Of a DNA stretch of 64,000 nt, positions 18,744-34,817 are shown in pieces. A program made the translations under genes and the position numbers. The stretch spans positions 13,330,001 to 13,394,000 of the forward strand of contig OZ024740.1 in NCBI GenBank assembly GCA_964016885.1, written 5' to 3'. The notes below the pieces were generated by a model. The model was not told the origin of the DNA. It did no database searches and saw only the letters and a list, made by a program, of their open reading frames with translations. The DNA is from Eledone cirrhosa (Eukaryota). The stretch's first letter is position 1; each line of letters starts with the position of its first letter.

Positions 18744-21700
18744 TGTTGGTGTGTGTGTTGGTGTGTGTGTGTGTTGGTGTGTGTGTTAGTGTGTGTGTTG
18801 GTGTGTGTGTTGGTGTGTGTGTGTTGGTGTGTGTGTTAGTGTGTGTGTTGGTGTGTGTGTTGGTGTGTGTGTGTTGGTGTGTGTGTTGGTGTGTGTGTTG
18901 GTGTGTGTGTTGGTGCGTGTGTTGGTGTGTGTGTTGGTCTGTGTGTTGGTGTGTGTGTCGGTCTGTGTGTTGGTGTGTCTGTGTTGGTGTGTGTGTTGGT
19001 GTGTCTGTGCTGGTGTGTGTGTCGGTGTGTGTGTTAGTGTGCGTGTTGGTGTGTGTGTTGGCGTGTGTGTCGGTGTGTGTGTTGGTGTGCGTGTTGGTGT
19101 GTGTGTTGGTGTGTGTGTTGGTGTGTGTGTTGGTGTGTGTGTTGGTGTGTGTGTTGGTGTGTGTGTTGGTGTGTGTGTTGGTGTGTGTGTTGGTGTGTGT
19201 GTTGGTGTGTGTGTTGGTGTGTGTGTGTTGGTGTGTGTGTTGGTGTGTGTGTTGGTGTGTGTGTTAGTGTGTGTTAGTGTGTGTATGTGTTGGTGTGTGT
19301 GTTGGTGTGTGTGTTGGTGTGTGTGTTGGTGTGTGTGTTGGTGTGTGTGTTGGCGTGTGTGTTGGTGTGTCTGTGTTGGTGTGTGTGTTAGTGTGTGTGT
19401 TGGTGTGTGTGTTGGTGTGTGTGTTGGTGTGTGTGTTGGTGTGTGTGTTAGTGTGTGTGTTGGTGTGTGTGTTGGTGTGTGTGTGTTGGTGTGTGTGTTG
19501 GTGTGTGTGTTAGTGTGTGTGTTGGTGTGTGTGTTGGTGTGTGTGTTAGTGTGTGTGTTGGTGTGTCTGTGTTGGTGTGTGTGTTGGTGTGTGTGTTGGC
19601 GTGTGTGTTGGTGTGTCTGTGTTGGTGTGTGTGTCGGTGTGTGTGTTGGTGTGCGTGTTGGTGTGTGTGTTGGTGTGTGTGTTAGTGTGTGTGTTGGTGT
19701 GTGTGTTGGTGTGTGTGTGTTGGTGTGTGTGTTAGTGTGTGTGTTGGTGTGTCTGTGTTGGTGTGTGTGTTGGTGTGTGTGTTGGTGTGCGTGTTGGTGT
19801 GTGTGTTAGTGTGTGTGTTGGTGTGTGTGTTGGTGTGTGTGTTGGTGTGTGTATGTGTTGGTGTGTGTGTTGGTGTGTGTGTGTTGGTGTGTGTGTTGGT
19901 GTGTGTGTTTTTGTGTGTGTTGGTGTGTGTGTGTTGGTGTGTGTGTTGGTGTGTGTGTTGGTGTGTGTGTTGGCGTGTGTGTGTTGGTGTGTGTGTTGGT
20001 GTGTGTGTTTTTGTGTGTGTTGGTATGTGTGTGTTGGTGTGTGCGTTGGTGTGTGTTGGTGTGTGTGTTGGTGTGTGTGTTGGTGTGTGTGTTGGTGTGT
20101 CTGTGTTGGTGTGTCTGTGTTGGTGTGTGTGTTGGTGTGTGTGTTTGTATATGTGTTGGTGTGTCTGTGTTGGTGTATGTGTTGGTGTGTGTGTTGGTGT
20201 GTGTGTTGGTGTGTGTTGTTGTGTGTGCTGGTGTGTGTGTTGGTGTGTCAGGTGTTTGTGCGCGTGTTGGTGTGTATGTTGGTGTGTGTCTGTGTTGGTG
20301 TGTGTGTTGGTGTGTGTGTTGGTGTGCGTGTTGGTTGGTGTGTTGGTGTGTGTGTTGGTGTGTGTGTTGGTGTGTGTGTTGGTGTGTGTGTGTGTTGGTG
20401 TGTGTGTTGGTGTGTGTGTTGGTGTGTGTGCTGGTGTGTGTGTTGGTGTGTCTGTGTTGGTGCGTGTGTTGGTGTGTGTGTTGGTGTGTGTGTGTGTTGG
20501 TGTATGTGTTGGTGTGTGTGTTGGCGTGTGTGTTGGTGTGTCTGTGTTGGTGTGTGTGTCGGTGTGTGTGTTGGAGTGCGTGTTGGTGTGTGTGTTGGTG
20601 TGTGTGTTGGTGTGTGTGTTGGTGTGTGTGTTGGTGTGTGTATGTGTTGGTGTGTGTCTTGGTGTGTGTGTTGGTGTGTGTGTTGTTGTGTATGTTGGTG
20701 TGTGTGCTGGTGTGTGTGTTGGCGCGTCTGTGTTGGTGTGTGTGTCCGTGTCTGTGTTGGTGTGCGTGTTGGTGTGTGTGTTGGTGTGTGTGTTGGTGTG
20801 TGTGTTGGTGTGTGTATGTGTTGGCGTGTGTGTTGGTGTGTGTGTTGGTGTGTGTGTTGGTGTGTGTGTTGGTGTGTGTATGTGTTGGCGTGTGTGTTGG
20901 TGTGTGTGTTGGTGTGTGTGTTGGTGTGTGTATGTGTTGGCGTGTGTGTTGGTGTGTGTGTTGGTGTGTGTGTTGGTGTGTGTCTTGGTGTGTGTGTTGG
21001 TGTGTGTGTTGGTGTGTGTGTTGGTGTGTGTGTTGGTGTGTGTATGTGTTGGCGTGTGTGTTGGTGTGTGTGTTGGTGTGTGTGTTGGTGTGTGTGTTGT
21101 TGTGTATGTTGGTGTGTGTCTGTGTTAGTGTGTGTGTTGGTGTGTGTGTTGGTGTGCGTGTTGGTTGGTGTGTTGGTGTGTGTGTTGGTGTGTGTGTTGG
21201 TGTGTGTGTTGGTGTGTGTGTGTGTTGGTGTGTGTGTTGGTGTGTGTGTTGGTGTGTGTGCTGGTGTGTGTGTTGGTGTATGTGTTGGTATGTGTGTTGG
21301 TGTGTGTGTTGGTGTGTCTATGTGTTCGTGTATGTGTTGGTGTGTGTGTTGGTGTGTCTGTGTTGGTGCATGTGTTGGCGTGTGTTGCTGTGTGTGTTGT
21401 TGTGTGTGTTGGTGTGTGAGTTGGTGTGTGTGTTGGTGTGTGTGTTGGTGTGTGTGTTGGTGTGTGTGTGTGTTGATGTGTGTGTTGGTGTGTGTGTTGG
21501 TGTGTGTGCTGGTGTGTGTGTTGGTGTGTCTGTGTTGGTGCGTGTGTTGGTGTGTGTGTTGGCGTGTGTGTGTGTTGGTGTGTGTGTTGGTGTGTGTGTC
21601 GGTGTGTGTGTTGCTGTGCGTGTTGGTGTGTGTGTTGGTGTGTGTGTTGATGTGTGTGTTGGTGTGTGTGTCGGTGTGTGTGTTGGCGTGTATGTTGGTG

Positions 21701-24268
21701 TGTGTGTTGGTGTGTGTGTGTTGGTGTGTGCGTTGGTGTGTGTTGGTGTGTGTTGGTGTGCGTGTTGGTGTGTGTGTTGGTTTGTGTATGTGTTGGCGTG
21801 TGTCTTGGTGTGTGTGTTGGTGCGTGTGTTGGTGTGTGTGTTGCTGTGTATGTTGGTGTGTGTGTGTGTTGGTGTGTGTGTTGGTGTGCGTGTTGGTGTG
21901 TGTATTGGTGTGTGTGTTGGTGTGTATGTGTTGGTGTGTGTGTTGGTGTATGTGTTGGTGTGTGTGTTGGTGTGTGTGTTTGTATATGTGTTGGTGTGTC
22001 TGTGTTGGTGTGTGTGTTGGTGTGTGTGTTGGTGTGTATGTGTTGGTGTGTGTGTTGGTGTGTGTATTGGTGTGTGTGTTGGTCTGTGTGTCTTGGTGTG
22101 TCTGTGTTGGTGTCTGTGTTGGTGTGTGTGTTGGTGTGTGTGTTGGTGTGTCTGTGTTGGTGTGTGTGTTGGTGTGTCTGTGTTGGTGTGTGTATGTGTT
22201 GGTGTGTGTTTTGGTGTGTGTGTTGGTGTGTGTGTTGGTGTGTGTATGTGCTGGTGTGTGTCTTGGTGTGTGTGTTAGTGTGTGTGCTGGTGTGCGTGTT
22301 GGTGTGTGTGTTGGTGTGTGTGTTGGTGTGTGTGTTGGTGTCTGTGTTGGGGCGTGTGTTGGTGTGTGTGTTGGTGTGTGTGTTGGTGTGTGTGTTGGTG
22401 TGTGTATGTGTTGGTGTGTGTGTTGGTGTGTGTGTTGGTGTGTGTGTTGGTGTGTGTGTGTTGGTGTGTGTGTTGGTGTGTGTGTTGGTGTGTGTGCTTG
22501 TGTGTGTGTTGGTGTGATTGTTGGTGTGTGTGTGTGTTGGTATGTGTGTTGGTTTGTGTGTTGGTGTGTGTGTGTTGGTGTGTGTGTTGGTGTGTGTGTG
22601 TGTTGGTGAGTGTGTTGGTATGTGTTGGTGTGTGTGTTGGTGTGTCTGTGTTGGTGTGTGTATGTGTTGGTGTGTGTCTTGGTGTGTGTTGGCGTATGTG
22701 TTGGTGTGTGTGTTGGTGTGTGTTTTTGGTGTGTGTGTTGGTGTGTGTGTTGGTGTGTGTGGTGGTGTGTGTGTGTGTTGGTGTGTGTGTTGGTGTGTGT
22801 TGTTGTGTGTGCTGGTGTGTGTGTTGGTGTGTCAGCTGTTGGTGCGCGTGTTGGTGTGTATGTTGGTGTGTGTGTGTGTTGGTGTGTGTGTTGGCGTGTG
22901 TGTTGGTGTGTCTGTGTTGGTGTGTGTGTTGGTGTGTGTGTTGGTGTGCGTGTTGGTTGGTGTGTTGGTGTGTGTGTTGGTGTGTGTGTTGGTGTGTGTG
23001 TTGTTGTGTATGTTGGTGTGTGTGTGTTGGTGTGTGTGTTGGTGTGTGTGTTGGTGTGTGTGCTGGTGTGTGTGTTGGTGTGTCTGTGTTGGTGCGTGTG
23101 TTGGTGTGTGTGTGTGTGTTGTTGTGTGTGTTGGTGTGTGTGTTGGTGTGTGTGTTGGTGTGTGTGTTGGTGTGTGTGTTGGTGTGTGTGTTGGTGTGTA
23201 TGTGTTGGTGTGTGTGTTGGTGTGTGTGTTGGTGTGTGTTTGTTGGTGTGTGTGTTGGTGTGTGTGTTTGTGTGTGTGTTGGTGTGTGTGTTGGTGTGTG
23301 TGCTGGTGTGTGTGTTGGTGTGTGTGTTGGTGTGTGTGTTGTTGTGTATGTTGGTGTGTGTGTGTTGGTGTGTGTGTTGGTGTGTGTGCTGGTGTGTGTG
23401 TTGGTGTGTCTGTGTTGGTGCGTGTGTTGGTGTGTGTGTGTGTGTTGTTGTGTGTGTTGGTGTGTGTGTTGGTGTGTGTGTTGGTGTGTGTGTTGGTGTG
23501 TGTGTTGGTGTGTATGTGTTGGTGTGTGTGTTGGTGTGTGTGTTGGTGTGCGTTTGTTGGTGTGTGTGTTGGTGTGTGTGTTTGTGTGTGTGTTTGTGTG
23601 TGCTGGTGTGTGTGTTGGTGTGAGTGTTGGTGTGTGTGTGTGTGTTGGTATGTGTGTTGGTGTGTGTGTTGGTGTGTGTGTTGGTGTGTCTGTGTTGGTG
23701 TGTGTATGTGTTGGTGTGTGTCTTGGTGTGTGCGTTGGTGTGTGTGTGTGTTGGTGTGTGTCTTGGTGTGTGTGTTAGTGTGTGTGCTGGTGTGCGTGTT
23801 GGTGTGTCTGTGTTGGTGCGTGTGTTGGTGTGTGTTGGCGTGTGTGTGTGTTGGTGTTTGTGTTGGTGTGTGTGTTGGTGTGTGTGTTGGTGTGTCTGTG
23901 TTGGTGTGTGTGTTGGTGTGTGTGTTGGTGTGTGTGTGTGTTGGTATGTGTGTTGATGTGTGTGTGTTGGTGTGTGTGTTTGTGTGTGTGTTGGTGTGTG
24001 TGTTAGTGTGTGTTTTGGTGTCTGTGTTGGTGCGTGTGTTGGTGTGTGTTGGTGTGCACATTGGTGTGTGTGTTGGTGTGTGCATTGGTGTGTGTGTTGG
24101 TGTGTGTGTTGGTGTGTGTGTTGGTGTGTGTGTTGGTGTGTGTGTGTTGGTGCCTGTGTTGGTGTGTGTGGGTGTGTGTTAATGTGTGTGTGTGTTGGTG
24201 TGTGTGTTGGTGTGTATGTTGGTGTGTATGTGTGTTGGTGCGTGTGTTGGTGTGTGTGTTGGTGTGTG
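18744..24268. repeat. 5.5-kb GT-rich satellite, main unit GTTGGTGTGTGT (12 bp, varying by GT steps)
   Basis: Directly visible. The V/C/W/L ORFs over it follow from the repeat unit. Confidence 0.97.
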
Positions 24269-33504: not shown

Positions 33505-33542
33505 ATATTAATATATATATATATAGTAATATTAATAAATTT

Positions 33543-33704
33543 GAAGACTAAAATCCAAAGAGGGGTCGATAAGGATAAATATATATCAAATAATTAAGAA
33601 CCGTAGAGCAAATATTTATTAAAATAACAGATTAAAGTTTAAGCAAAGAATCGCTGCTTTCACCTAAGGATTCTTTGCTTAAACTTTAATCTGTTATTTT
33701 AATA
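33543..33704. repeat. Short interspersed element capped by a perfect 36-bp inverted repeat
   Basis: Arms 33617-33652 and 33669-33704; body homologous to ~29907-29977; (TA)n on both sides. Confidence 0.75.
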
Positions 33705-33735
33705 TATATATATATATATATTAATATATATATAT

Positions 33736-34139
33736 AATAGCTTTCCCCGCATTTTTGACTAAAGAAATTTTAGTCTGATAATGGGGTTTAGAACCCTCAG
33801 ATAAATGGAAAAAAGATGCGTATTGACGCACATGGGAGTCGAACCCACATCTTTGGTTATTCAGACCACTGTGCTACCATTACACCAACACATCACCCAT
33901 CTACTCCCATTCAAATTAGAAGTTACATTCTTAGCGAGTATAAATGACAAGTAAGTATGTTTTGAAACAGTGAGCAGGTTTGAATAGCTTTCACCGTATT
34001 TTTGACTAAAGAAATTTTAGTCTGATAATGGGCTTTAGAACCCTCAGATAAATGGAAAAAGATGAGGATTGACGTACATGGGAGTCGAACCCACATCTTT
34101 TGTTATCCAAAGATGTGGGTTCGACTCCCATGTACGTCA
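33736..34139 (-). mobile_element. Tandem (247-bp period, ~1.5 units) tRNA-like element with terminal fold-back
   Basis: Units start at 33736 and 33983; inverted arms 34070-34100 and 34109-34139; (TA)n at the other end. Confidence 0.65.
33824..33894 (-). pseudogene. tRNA-like sequence (degenerate; closest to tRNA-Gln by eye)
   Basis: A box TGGTGTAATGG, D arm GTG/CAC, T arm GTGGG-TTCGACT-CCCAT, G:U-rich acceptor stem GATGTGT/GTGCGTC, downstream T-run. The anticodon arm is ambiguous. Confidence 0.6.
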
Positions 34140-34150
34140 GAGACACACAC

Positions 34151-34255
34151 ATGACTATTTCTTATGATAGGAAGCGCCGTGCTCATGATCATTTCTTATA
34201 ATAGGAAGGGCCGTGCTTATGACCATTTCTTATAATACGAAGGGCCGTGCTCATG
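34151..34255. repeat. 34-bp tandem repeat, 3 copies
   Basis: ATGAYYATTTCTTATRATASGAAGSGCCGTGCTY at 34151, 34185 and 34219. Confidence 0.9.
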
Positions 34256-34817
34256 TTCTTTTCGGGGCCATGACGAGAAGGGATGAGGAAGATATTTTCA
34301 AATAAGTGACCCGACCTAAATACTTGTAACAGAGGGAACTCTGCTTGTAACATGTAGGGTTCAGGTGGTGGTGTTAAAAAGCAGACGACGGATACAGTCT
34401 GCCACCCAAGTAGACCACAGACAATGTTGAACTCAGAAAACAAAGAACCAGAACAGATACCAATTACAAGGCAACTCGTTCTGGAATTGACCTTGTCTGT
34501 GTCAACGATGAGTGTTCCGGTTGTTCGACTAACGGAACAGCCTACTCAAGAAATTAGCAGGTAAGTGGCTGAGCATTCAGCGTGTTACAGTAAGACGAGG
34601 CTGCCTTTTGAATTACAAGAACAATCCAGCCGACAGACTTCCAAACAGTTTCTGCCTACCCTCTTTCACTCACAAGACATGGTTCAACCCAAGGCTATAG
34701 TAAATACTACGAAAGAGAATTGAAGCGGGAGCTAAATGATTATGAAACGAAGTTTCCCACCGTTCGGCTAAGCTGTGCCCACAACAGACGCTCTAATAAT
34801 ATCGCCAATCCTTCTAA

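Follow-up and report, generated by a model that had tools for sequence, protein, structure and literature searches.

We think it probable that a short repeat in the genome of Eledone cirrhosa is a protein-less element copied by the machinery of Penelope-like elements (PLEs), in which a tRNA mimic serves as a Pol III promoter, carries an m1A58 mark and, through its anticodon loop, pairs two RNAs. One copy lies in the window, the whole stretch of 64,000 nucleotides analyzed here (contig OZ024740.1, positions 13,330,001 to 13,394,000). The original prediction described this copy as a 247-bp minus-strand unit bearing a tRNA-like cloverleaf, and its layout is given in Table 1. Throughout, positions in the family unit are given as u1 to u260 along the tRNA strand; the tRNA occupies u89-u159.

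Table 1. Features of the repeat copy in the window (coordinates are positions in the window)
Feature	Position	Strand	Remarks
(TA)n target microsatellite	33702-33736	none	At the 3' end of the element
3'-most unit	33736-33982	-	u1-u246 of the 260-bp family unit; 3' end of the 'short' class
Trailer, including T run	33801-33823	-	T6 at 33809-33814
Cloverleaf, ARAGORN call	33823-33895	-	
tRNA-like cloverleaf	33824-33894	-	u89-u159; Rfam tRNA 48.4 bits, E 2e-8
B box / T loop	33835-33845	-	Read from the sequence; A58 at 33839
Anticodon-loop hexamer, positions 31-36	33860-33865	-	TCTGAA here; family state TCTGGA
A box, internal Pol III promoter motif	33877-33887	-	Read from the sequence
Leader	33895-33917	-	Pairs with the trailer, prolonging the acceptor stem by about 20 bp
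'Tail' segment	33943-33982	-	u1-u40; internal in the window copy
Upstream partial unit	33983-34109	-	u120-u246; 5'-truncated within the anticodon loop; junction lacks 14 bp
Short inverted arm	34109-34139	+	Ends at tRNA position 73; atypical for the family

The layout bears out most of what had been read from the letters. Rfam and ARAGORN both recover the cloverleaf, and the A and B boxes and the downstream T run were located in the sequence. The 1.5 or so tandem copies are spaced 247 bp start to start; the family unit is 260 bp, and the window copy has lost 14 bp at the tandem junction and gained one T. The 3' end adjoins the (TA)n tract as claimed, and the perfect 31-bp fold-back with its apex in the anticodon arm is present (34070-34100 against 34109-34139, with an 8-nt loop). 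Some features are peculiar to this copy. The 31-bp inverted arm is atypically short and lacks a normal 3' end, placing it among the 4 'other' ends found in 129 arms, and the segment u1-u40, internal here, is where the second arm has its outer end in most insertions of the family. The apparent Phe GAA anticodon is a private change, with TCTGAA present in 4 of 209 dispersed copies.

The surroundings of the copy are rich in other repeats. The same TA tract holds another multi-copy inverted-repeat element (33521-33700), which matches locus L244 and others. Next to the short inverted arm, the region 34140-34500 consists of a 34-bp minisatellite (34150-34255) followed by an old repeat that is 70-84% identical to its relatives, of which one (L384) codes for a LINE-like C-terminal peptide, presumably of RTE type. 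Further away are a 29-kb satellite of about 1,200 copies of a 24-bp unit (34956-63991) and a 5.5-kb satellite with a 12-bp unit (18744-24268). The (TA)n tracts of many loci elsewhere (for example L057, L040, L088 and L132) also hold several small hammerhead-bearing elements.

The repeat belongs to a large family. A first look at the 3.0-Gb host genome gave 2,114 candidate matches for the unit, and exact motif counts were 1,638 for subfamily A, 1,289 for B, 422 for D, 80 for E and F together, and 2,223 for the tail motif; as a rough estimate that allows for divergence, we place the family at a few thousand insertions. Tandem units are 260 bp long in A and 290 bp in B, and tandems range from dimers to 25-mers. 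The 25-unit array (L129:512-7430, on C1 near 131.46 Mb) is built of A units 83-91% identical to the reference and retains an inverted left arm and a tail end; it is a step between tandem insertion and satellite. A one-stranded satellite of the 290-bp B unit, located through a strand excess, occupies about 276 kb (C28:19,440,624-19,716,542). All stretches sampled inside it are array, which implies about 950 units; its 5' end falls at about tRNA position 8 within (TA)n, and its 3' end is interrupted by unrelated sequence.

All subfamilies retain the cloverleaf (Rfam 38-51 bits). Its D arm resembles host tRNA-Gln, and the extra D-loop base of subfamily E is also found there, while overall identity is 49 of 71 positions, barely above that to other tRNAs. 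Decoding tRNAs have a stable anticodon, U33 and a purine at position 37. We rejected a functional tRNA gene, since the cloverleaf is present but the anticodon is unstable, position 33 is T, G, C or A depending on the subfamily, and position 37 is T. Among the A/B consensus sequences the tRNA was not clearly more or less constrained than other parts of the unit: 13 of its 71 columns vary, and 9 of 47 do so in the hairpins. A short direct repeat (u59-70 and u241-260) flanks the block formed by the tRNA and the hairpin, and is possibly a relic of the insertion of this block into an older unit. Host clusters of tRNA-Gln and tRNA-Thr genes lie at C1:168.21-168.28 Mb (L389-L407) and C1:243.65-243.68 Mb (L182 and L184), and one locus (L391) carries a Gln-like tRNA copy with a CTA anticodon. 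A second, dispersed tRNA-bearing family (L183 and L185-L193) was considered as a PLE-type element and set aside, as it has no PLE geometry. Its members exceed 1 kb by a wide margin; one end is fixed in TA, the inverted repeats are subterminal, and the tRNA, which is internal and varies in its anticodon, has flanks able to pair with each other. This element looks like a DNA-transposon derivative.

The geometry of the insertions is the main evidence that PLE machinery does the copying. A 3' 25-mer was followed along C1 in genome order; nearly all of its first 100 places were fetched, and they yielded 76 insertions. Head-to-head pairs of arms make up 53 of them and single arms the other 23. The 129 arms comprise 60 with 'short' ends (u220-u4, mostly u240-258), 65 with 'tail' ends (u30-45) and 4 that end elsewhere; 47 of the 53 two-armed insertions combine one tail end with one short end, about 40 nt apart. 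All 3' ends lie on the tRNA-sense strand and 122 of the 129 are in TA, with TA on both sides in 57 of the 76 insertions. At least one arm of 260 nt or more, that is, a partial tandem, is present in 17 insertions. The collection thus reproduces the partial tandems, inverted arms and (TA)n targets anticipated from the single copy, and confirms that the tRNA is internal, where ordinary SINEs have it at the 5' end. Neither of the findings named beforehand as contrary was obtained: the unit is not single-copy, and its copies are not predominantly monomers that start at the tRNA and carry LINE-like tails with target-site duplications, the last being unreadable inside the (TA)n where insertions sit.

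Partial tandems, an inverted 5' copy, a one-sided tail and a bias to (TA)n are what Craig et al. describe for PLEs (PMC8557442), and two internal start sites for reverse transcription were observed in vitro by Frangieh et al. (PMC11167929); as far as the available text of these papers goes, the geometry of the family matches both. The reading of the window copy as a non-autonomous, PLE-mobilized element therefore stands in its structural part: with head-to-head arms, partial tandems, one-sided tails, (TA)n targets and no conserved hammerhead, the family is a non-autonomous PLE derivative in structure. That PLE machinery drives the copying we hold with high confidence.

We compared the unit with the PLEs of the host itself. 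Among 10,597 GIY-YIG candidates are families with a CxxC linker of the Neptune kind and intact EN+ elements whose RT + GIY-YIG frames span 900-905 aa. One young autonomous family (L302-L321), with many intact frames of this length, is a candidate driver and a suitable source of enzyme for work in vitro; it forms tandem and inverted pairs, has a hammerhead core, ends in (TA)n and bears a tail of about 45 nt. Sequence comparison gave no link: against 50 PLE loci, representing a handful of families among the 10,597 candidates, the 3' region of the unit reached a local score of 46 (shuffles 42-60), and the best nhmmer match had an E value of 1.3. The 30 loci fetched by the tail motif were all family members, with no autonomous partner among them.

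The original prediction also reported no hammerhead core. For the family this holds, as no type I hammerhead is conserved in the unit; the window copy itself has one borderline match, on the sense strand, with one core mismatch, a 3-bp stem and a 55-nt spacer. A relaxed core scan that recovered two of three positive controls found no hammerhead on the sense strand of four other subfamily stretches; its two weak antisense matches were both in L011, and the A2, B and C stretches were free of matches. The Rfam hammerhead search returned none, but is uninformative since it missed the positive controls as well. We considered the motif CTGA...GAAAGCT as the remnant of an active hammerhead and rejected it: CTGA has become CCGA in B and C, and GAAA has become GATA in C.

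Where the arms end at their 5' side is informative about the template. In the A set, 64 of 129 arms end at u143-156. Pooling A, B and D, 90 of 189 ends fall at +1 to +12, that is, 3' of A58, against 4 at -11 to 0. Counted as a first-pass stop, 84 of 136 arms in these subfamilies end just 3' of A58, a count that includes two near-identical D loci. Roughly 60% of the arms that reach the T arm stop within these 12 nt and are joined head-to-head via short homologies. Because arms stop here, few whole tRNAs exist (21 of the 76 insertions). The stop is seen in several haplotypes and single arms, with varied junctions and with stutters where synthesis restarted.

The older subfamilies E and F behave differently. 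They have T58 in 38 of 42 copies, and only 3 of 37 arms stop 3' of the position (Fisher p 1.7e-9 against A, B and D). We located E and F through a D-loop variant and sampled 53 arms at 50 loci, the first 50 of 80 places of a 3' motif. Automatic placement, which was offset by one base and extended leniently, put 0 of 35 arms in the zone; three arms (L437, L456 and L465) were moved into it by eye, giving the 3 of 37. The comparison bears on two simpler causes for the pile-up. Re-amplification of a single palindromic master was rejected on the several haplotypes, single arms and varied junctions. Homology at the motif CATG was rejected as the sole cause, because E and F keep CATG and have no pile-up; therefore the stop needs the T loop of an RNA.

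Reverse transcriptases are documented to stop at m1A58 (10.1101/2023.12.09.569604, in its available part), and m1A58 is likely the simplest cause of the stop seen here. With good confidence we conclude that the template is an RNA folded as a tRNA, with an A58-dependent stop; judged from the DNA junctions, this RNA is probably methylated. The modal stop is at +5/+6 rather than +1, so trimming to the nearest homology must be assumed. Copies that read through A58 have no excess of misincorporation at it (3.9%, like other positions). E and F are older and also differ at position 59, and loss of T-loop structure would explain their absent stop as well as loss of methylation.

The anticodon loop points to a further role for the RNA. 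Positions 31-36 read TCTGGA in 132 of 209 dispersed A-C copies, TCGCGA in 29, TCCGGA in 7 and TCTAGA in 4. Subfamily E has TCATGA in 23 of 30 copies; subfamily F, which is decayed, has the per-position consensus CCATGG, intact in only 3 of 12 copies. All six hexamers, among them the four subfamily versions TCTGGA, TCGCGA, TCATGA and CCATGG, are self-complementary, with paired changes on both sides twice at 33/34 and once at 31/36, and none of four host tRNA loops tested, Gln loops among them, is so. There have been about three independent changes, each with about a one-in-three chance of keeping the pair, which is good evidence but not decisive. Free folding of tandem pairs formed a loop-loop helix in only 1 of 5 cases. 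We lean toward the view that the loop pairs two RNA copies, because in PLEs and retrozymes it is a palindromic loop that holds the hammerhead dimers together (PMC4209133, PMC7229834) and the PAc protein is a predicted dimer (PMC11167929), according to the portions of these papers at hand.

The same loop could instead serve tRNA splicing. Neighboring copies would swap halves so that their loops form a BHB, TSEN would cut both at 37/38, RtcB would close a unit-length circle, and a PLE enzyme would copy this circle repeatedly. As described in the accessible text of PMC10485636 and PMC4090602, eukaryotic TSEN cuts BHBs and permuted tRNAs mature via circles; the 4-bp helix of positions 32-35 and the 3-nt bulges at 36-38 have the BHB geometry given there, and RtcB circularizes retrozyme RNA (PMC7229834, same proviso). 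Under constrained folding, swapping gains 0.6-5.3 kcal/mol over a pair of separate cloverleaves, and the anticodon loop (-25 to -17) holds a cluster of 11 of the 189 arm ends. However, free folds do not favor the BHB, several loop ends lie 3-6 nt beyond position 38 with no clean stop there, and the joint change of 31 and 36 in subfamily F speaks for a 6-bp pairing over the 4-bp BHB helix. The pile-up of ends at tRNA +1 also needs linear templates. We regard the splicing circle as unlikely. Rare variants are common to neighboring units or opposite arms about 12 times more often than to random pairs (0.12 against 0.010), and this excess fits copying from one source without separating a circle from re-use of a template; only 14 of 62 tandem pairs have a rare variant in common, and most neighboring units have none.

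The pile-up at tRNA +1 was seen in the 80 arms with an intact D arm, a set that includes several arms from one insertion. Of these, 19 have their ends 0-18 nt upstream of position 9, and the peak, five arms, is at -1. The end hazard near the tRNA 5' end is 0.24, against 0.03-0.14 in the next seven 21-nt windows, and rises again in later windows (0.21 and 0.27). The pile-up fits either a Pol III start or an RNase P cut. Both had been proposed for the tRNA module at the outset, together with RNase Z; the 19 of 80 ends lend the Pol III role indirect support, and RNase Z fares poorly, with ends at 73-74 in only 2 of 129 arms of the main set (and 3 of 30 at u158-160 in D). On balance we favor a Pol III start at or near tRNA +1, somewhat more than an even prospect.

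If RNase P and RNase Z excised the tRNA from multimeric transcripts, they would replace the hammerhead, and both the retention of the cloverleaf in all subfamilies and the concentration of ends at -1/+1, the RNase P site, speak for this. We nonetheless consider it improbable. Besides the scarcity of ends at the RNase Z side, the leader-trailer duplex prolongs the acceptor stem and would be expected to hinder both enzymes, and excision of the tRNA would take the promoter out of the copy. The trailer, which includes the T run, is complementary to the leader at -25.2 kcal/mol, a value that 0 of 2000 shuffles equaled. When tandem pairs are folded freely, the trailer of a unit pairs with the leader of the unit that follows; if the folds are right, a transcript with its start at one tRNA and its end in the next would thereby have the two brought together.

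In 319 of 340 copies a T5 run (T6 in the window copy), a would-be Pol III terminator, is kept 9 nt beyond the tRNA; this counts against a simple Pol III model, and templates must read through the run. Its position directly after the tRNA favors a reading in which the tRNA is passive: PLE enzymes would copy Pol II read-through transcripts of tandems or satellite, and the tRNA would only block reverse transcription. Arms longer than one unit need multimeric templates, the 276-kb and 25-unit arrays are possible sources, and because of the tRNA the element loses most of its full-length copies. Against a passive tRNA, the 3' ends are all of the tRNA-sense strand, ends pile up at tRNA +1, the large array comes from one subfamily only, and the A and B boxes, the cloverleaf and the loop self-complementarity persist across diverged subfamilies. 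This reading, too, has a small probability. An ordinary tRNA-derived SINE, a SINE-derived satellite or a MITE-like DNA transposon would account for a tRNA with A and B boxes, a large satellite and many short inverted repeats in TA, but is highly improbable, as the end statistics refute it unless our sample is unrepresentative: the tRNA is internal and seldom whole, a LINE-like tail is lacking, the outer ends fall at two distinct 3' sites instead of forming identical terminal repeats, and the junctions vary.

Under the preferred reading, a PLE-copied repeat with an active tRNA mimic, the cycle would run as follows. Pol III would start at or near tRNA +1 and read through T5 into the next tandem unit. 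The RNA would fold as a tRNA, the trailer of one unit pairing with the next leader, as the DNA ends suggest. The RT/GIY-YIG endonuclease of a PLE would do the copying. As the DNA shows, synthesis begins in (TA)n at a pair of internal sites (u240-258 and u30-40) separated by about 40 nt, one per arm. Arms stopped at A58 and joined yield palindromic dead-end copies of about 250 bp without the tRNA; those passing A58 give whole units, partial tandems and arrays, and presumably only multi-unit copies could act as sources. The palindromic loop may play the pairing role that palindromic loop 3 has in the dimeric hammerheads of PLEs and retrozymes.

More tentatively, and at somewhat less than even confidence, we propose a PLE-dependent class of animal retroelements whose tRNA mimic takes the place of the hammerhead, supplies a Pol III promoter and is matured by host tRNA enzymes (m1A58 being recorded in thousands of DNA junctions), and whose anticodon loop has been rebuilt as a dimerization signal that feeds either the two sites of a dimeric PLE enzyme or a tRNA-splicing circle. 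A literature search outside Repbase, Dfam and supplements returned no paper on a tRNA-bearing PLE passenger, and the available text of a repeat-rich invertebrate annotation (PMC13282606) has no mention of one; the family may already have a database entry under a different name.

The unit bears on how PLEs come by their tandems, inverted arms and tails, and on the function of their hammerheads. The hammerhead is dispensable in vitro (PMC11167929, in its available part), and a ribozyme-less passenger of 260 nt with all PLE footprints and a conserved self-pairing loop suggests that RNA pairing, not cleavage, may be the needed function. The unit is a minimal substrate for testing one against the other. 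A58 versus T58 is a natural experiment, in which the genome records an RNA modification or fold as a map of reverse transcription stops. Such copies also swell the number of tRNA genes called, and the short ones risk being classified as MITEs by mistake.

Several known systems resemble the unit in part; the comparisons below draw on the available text of the papers cited. The animal non-LTR retrozymes (PMC7229834; bioRxiv 10.64898/2026.07.22.740005) are also short non-coding tandems, from dimers to arrays, and have been proposed as non-autonomous PLE derivatives; 260 and 290 bp both lie within their 150-450-bp tandem unit, and the palindromic loop through which their hammerheads act as dimers (PMC4209133) recalls that of the unit. 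Retrozymes, however, carry a type I hammerhead in each unit, whereas our unit conserves none and has a tRNA mimic with A and B boxes, and the word tRNA is absent from the text of the bioRxiv paper that was available. The MRC1-type derivatives and the hammerhead-less Naiad/Chlamys elements (PMC8557442) come close in their partial tandems, inverted 5' copy, one-sided tail of 30-40 bp, (TA)n bias and independence of a hammerhead. MRC1-type elements have a 3' end in common with an autonomous family, which for our unit was not found among the 50 PLE loci, and the accessible text names no tRNA module for such derivatives, its single mention of tRNA concerning selenocysteine.

The TRIMp3 elements Cassandra, Helenus and Ajax (PMC10886601) are likewise non-autonomous retroelements that form tandem arrays and hold a small-RNA gene as a probable Pol III promoter. 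They are of LTR type, with PBS, PPT and 4-5-bp target duplications, whereas the unit has head-to-head arms and variable 5' ends; and whereas a function at the RNA level is argued against in that paper, our unit bears traces of one in the tRNA fold, A58 and loop pairing. tRNA-derived SINEs and the satellites derived from them (PMC10702118) have in common with the unit a tRNA-derived promoter region and tandem arrays that arise from a retroelement. The unit differs in its internal tRNA and two-armed insertions, in having two fixed internal 3' sites that run into (TA)n in place of a LINE-like tail, and in arrays that begin as PLE-type insertions. In the permuted tRNA genes of algae (PMC4090602), as in the unit, a 3' half and the next 5' half pair into a tRNA with a BHB-like junction, but those genes give working tRNAs, whereas the BHB-like pairing of the unit is only drawn and is energetically level. 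By its defining features, the unit is not a retrozyme, a SINE, a TRIMp3 or a working tRNA gene. As SINEs are to LINEs and TRIMp3 elements to LTR elements, it would be a passenger of Pol III type for PLEs.
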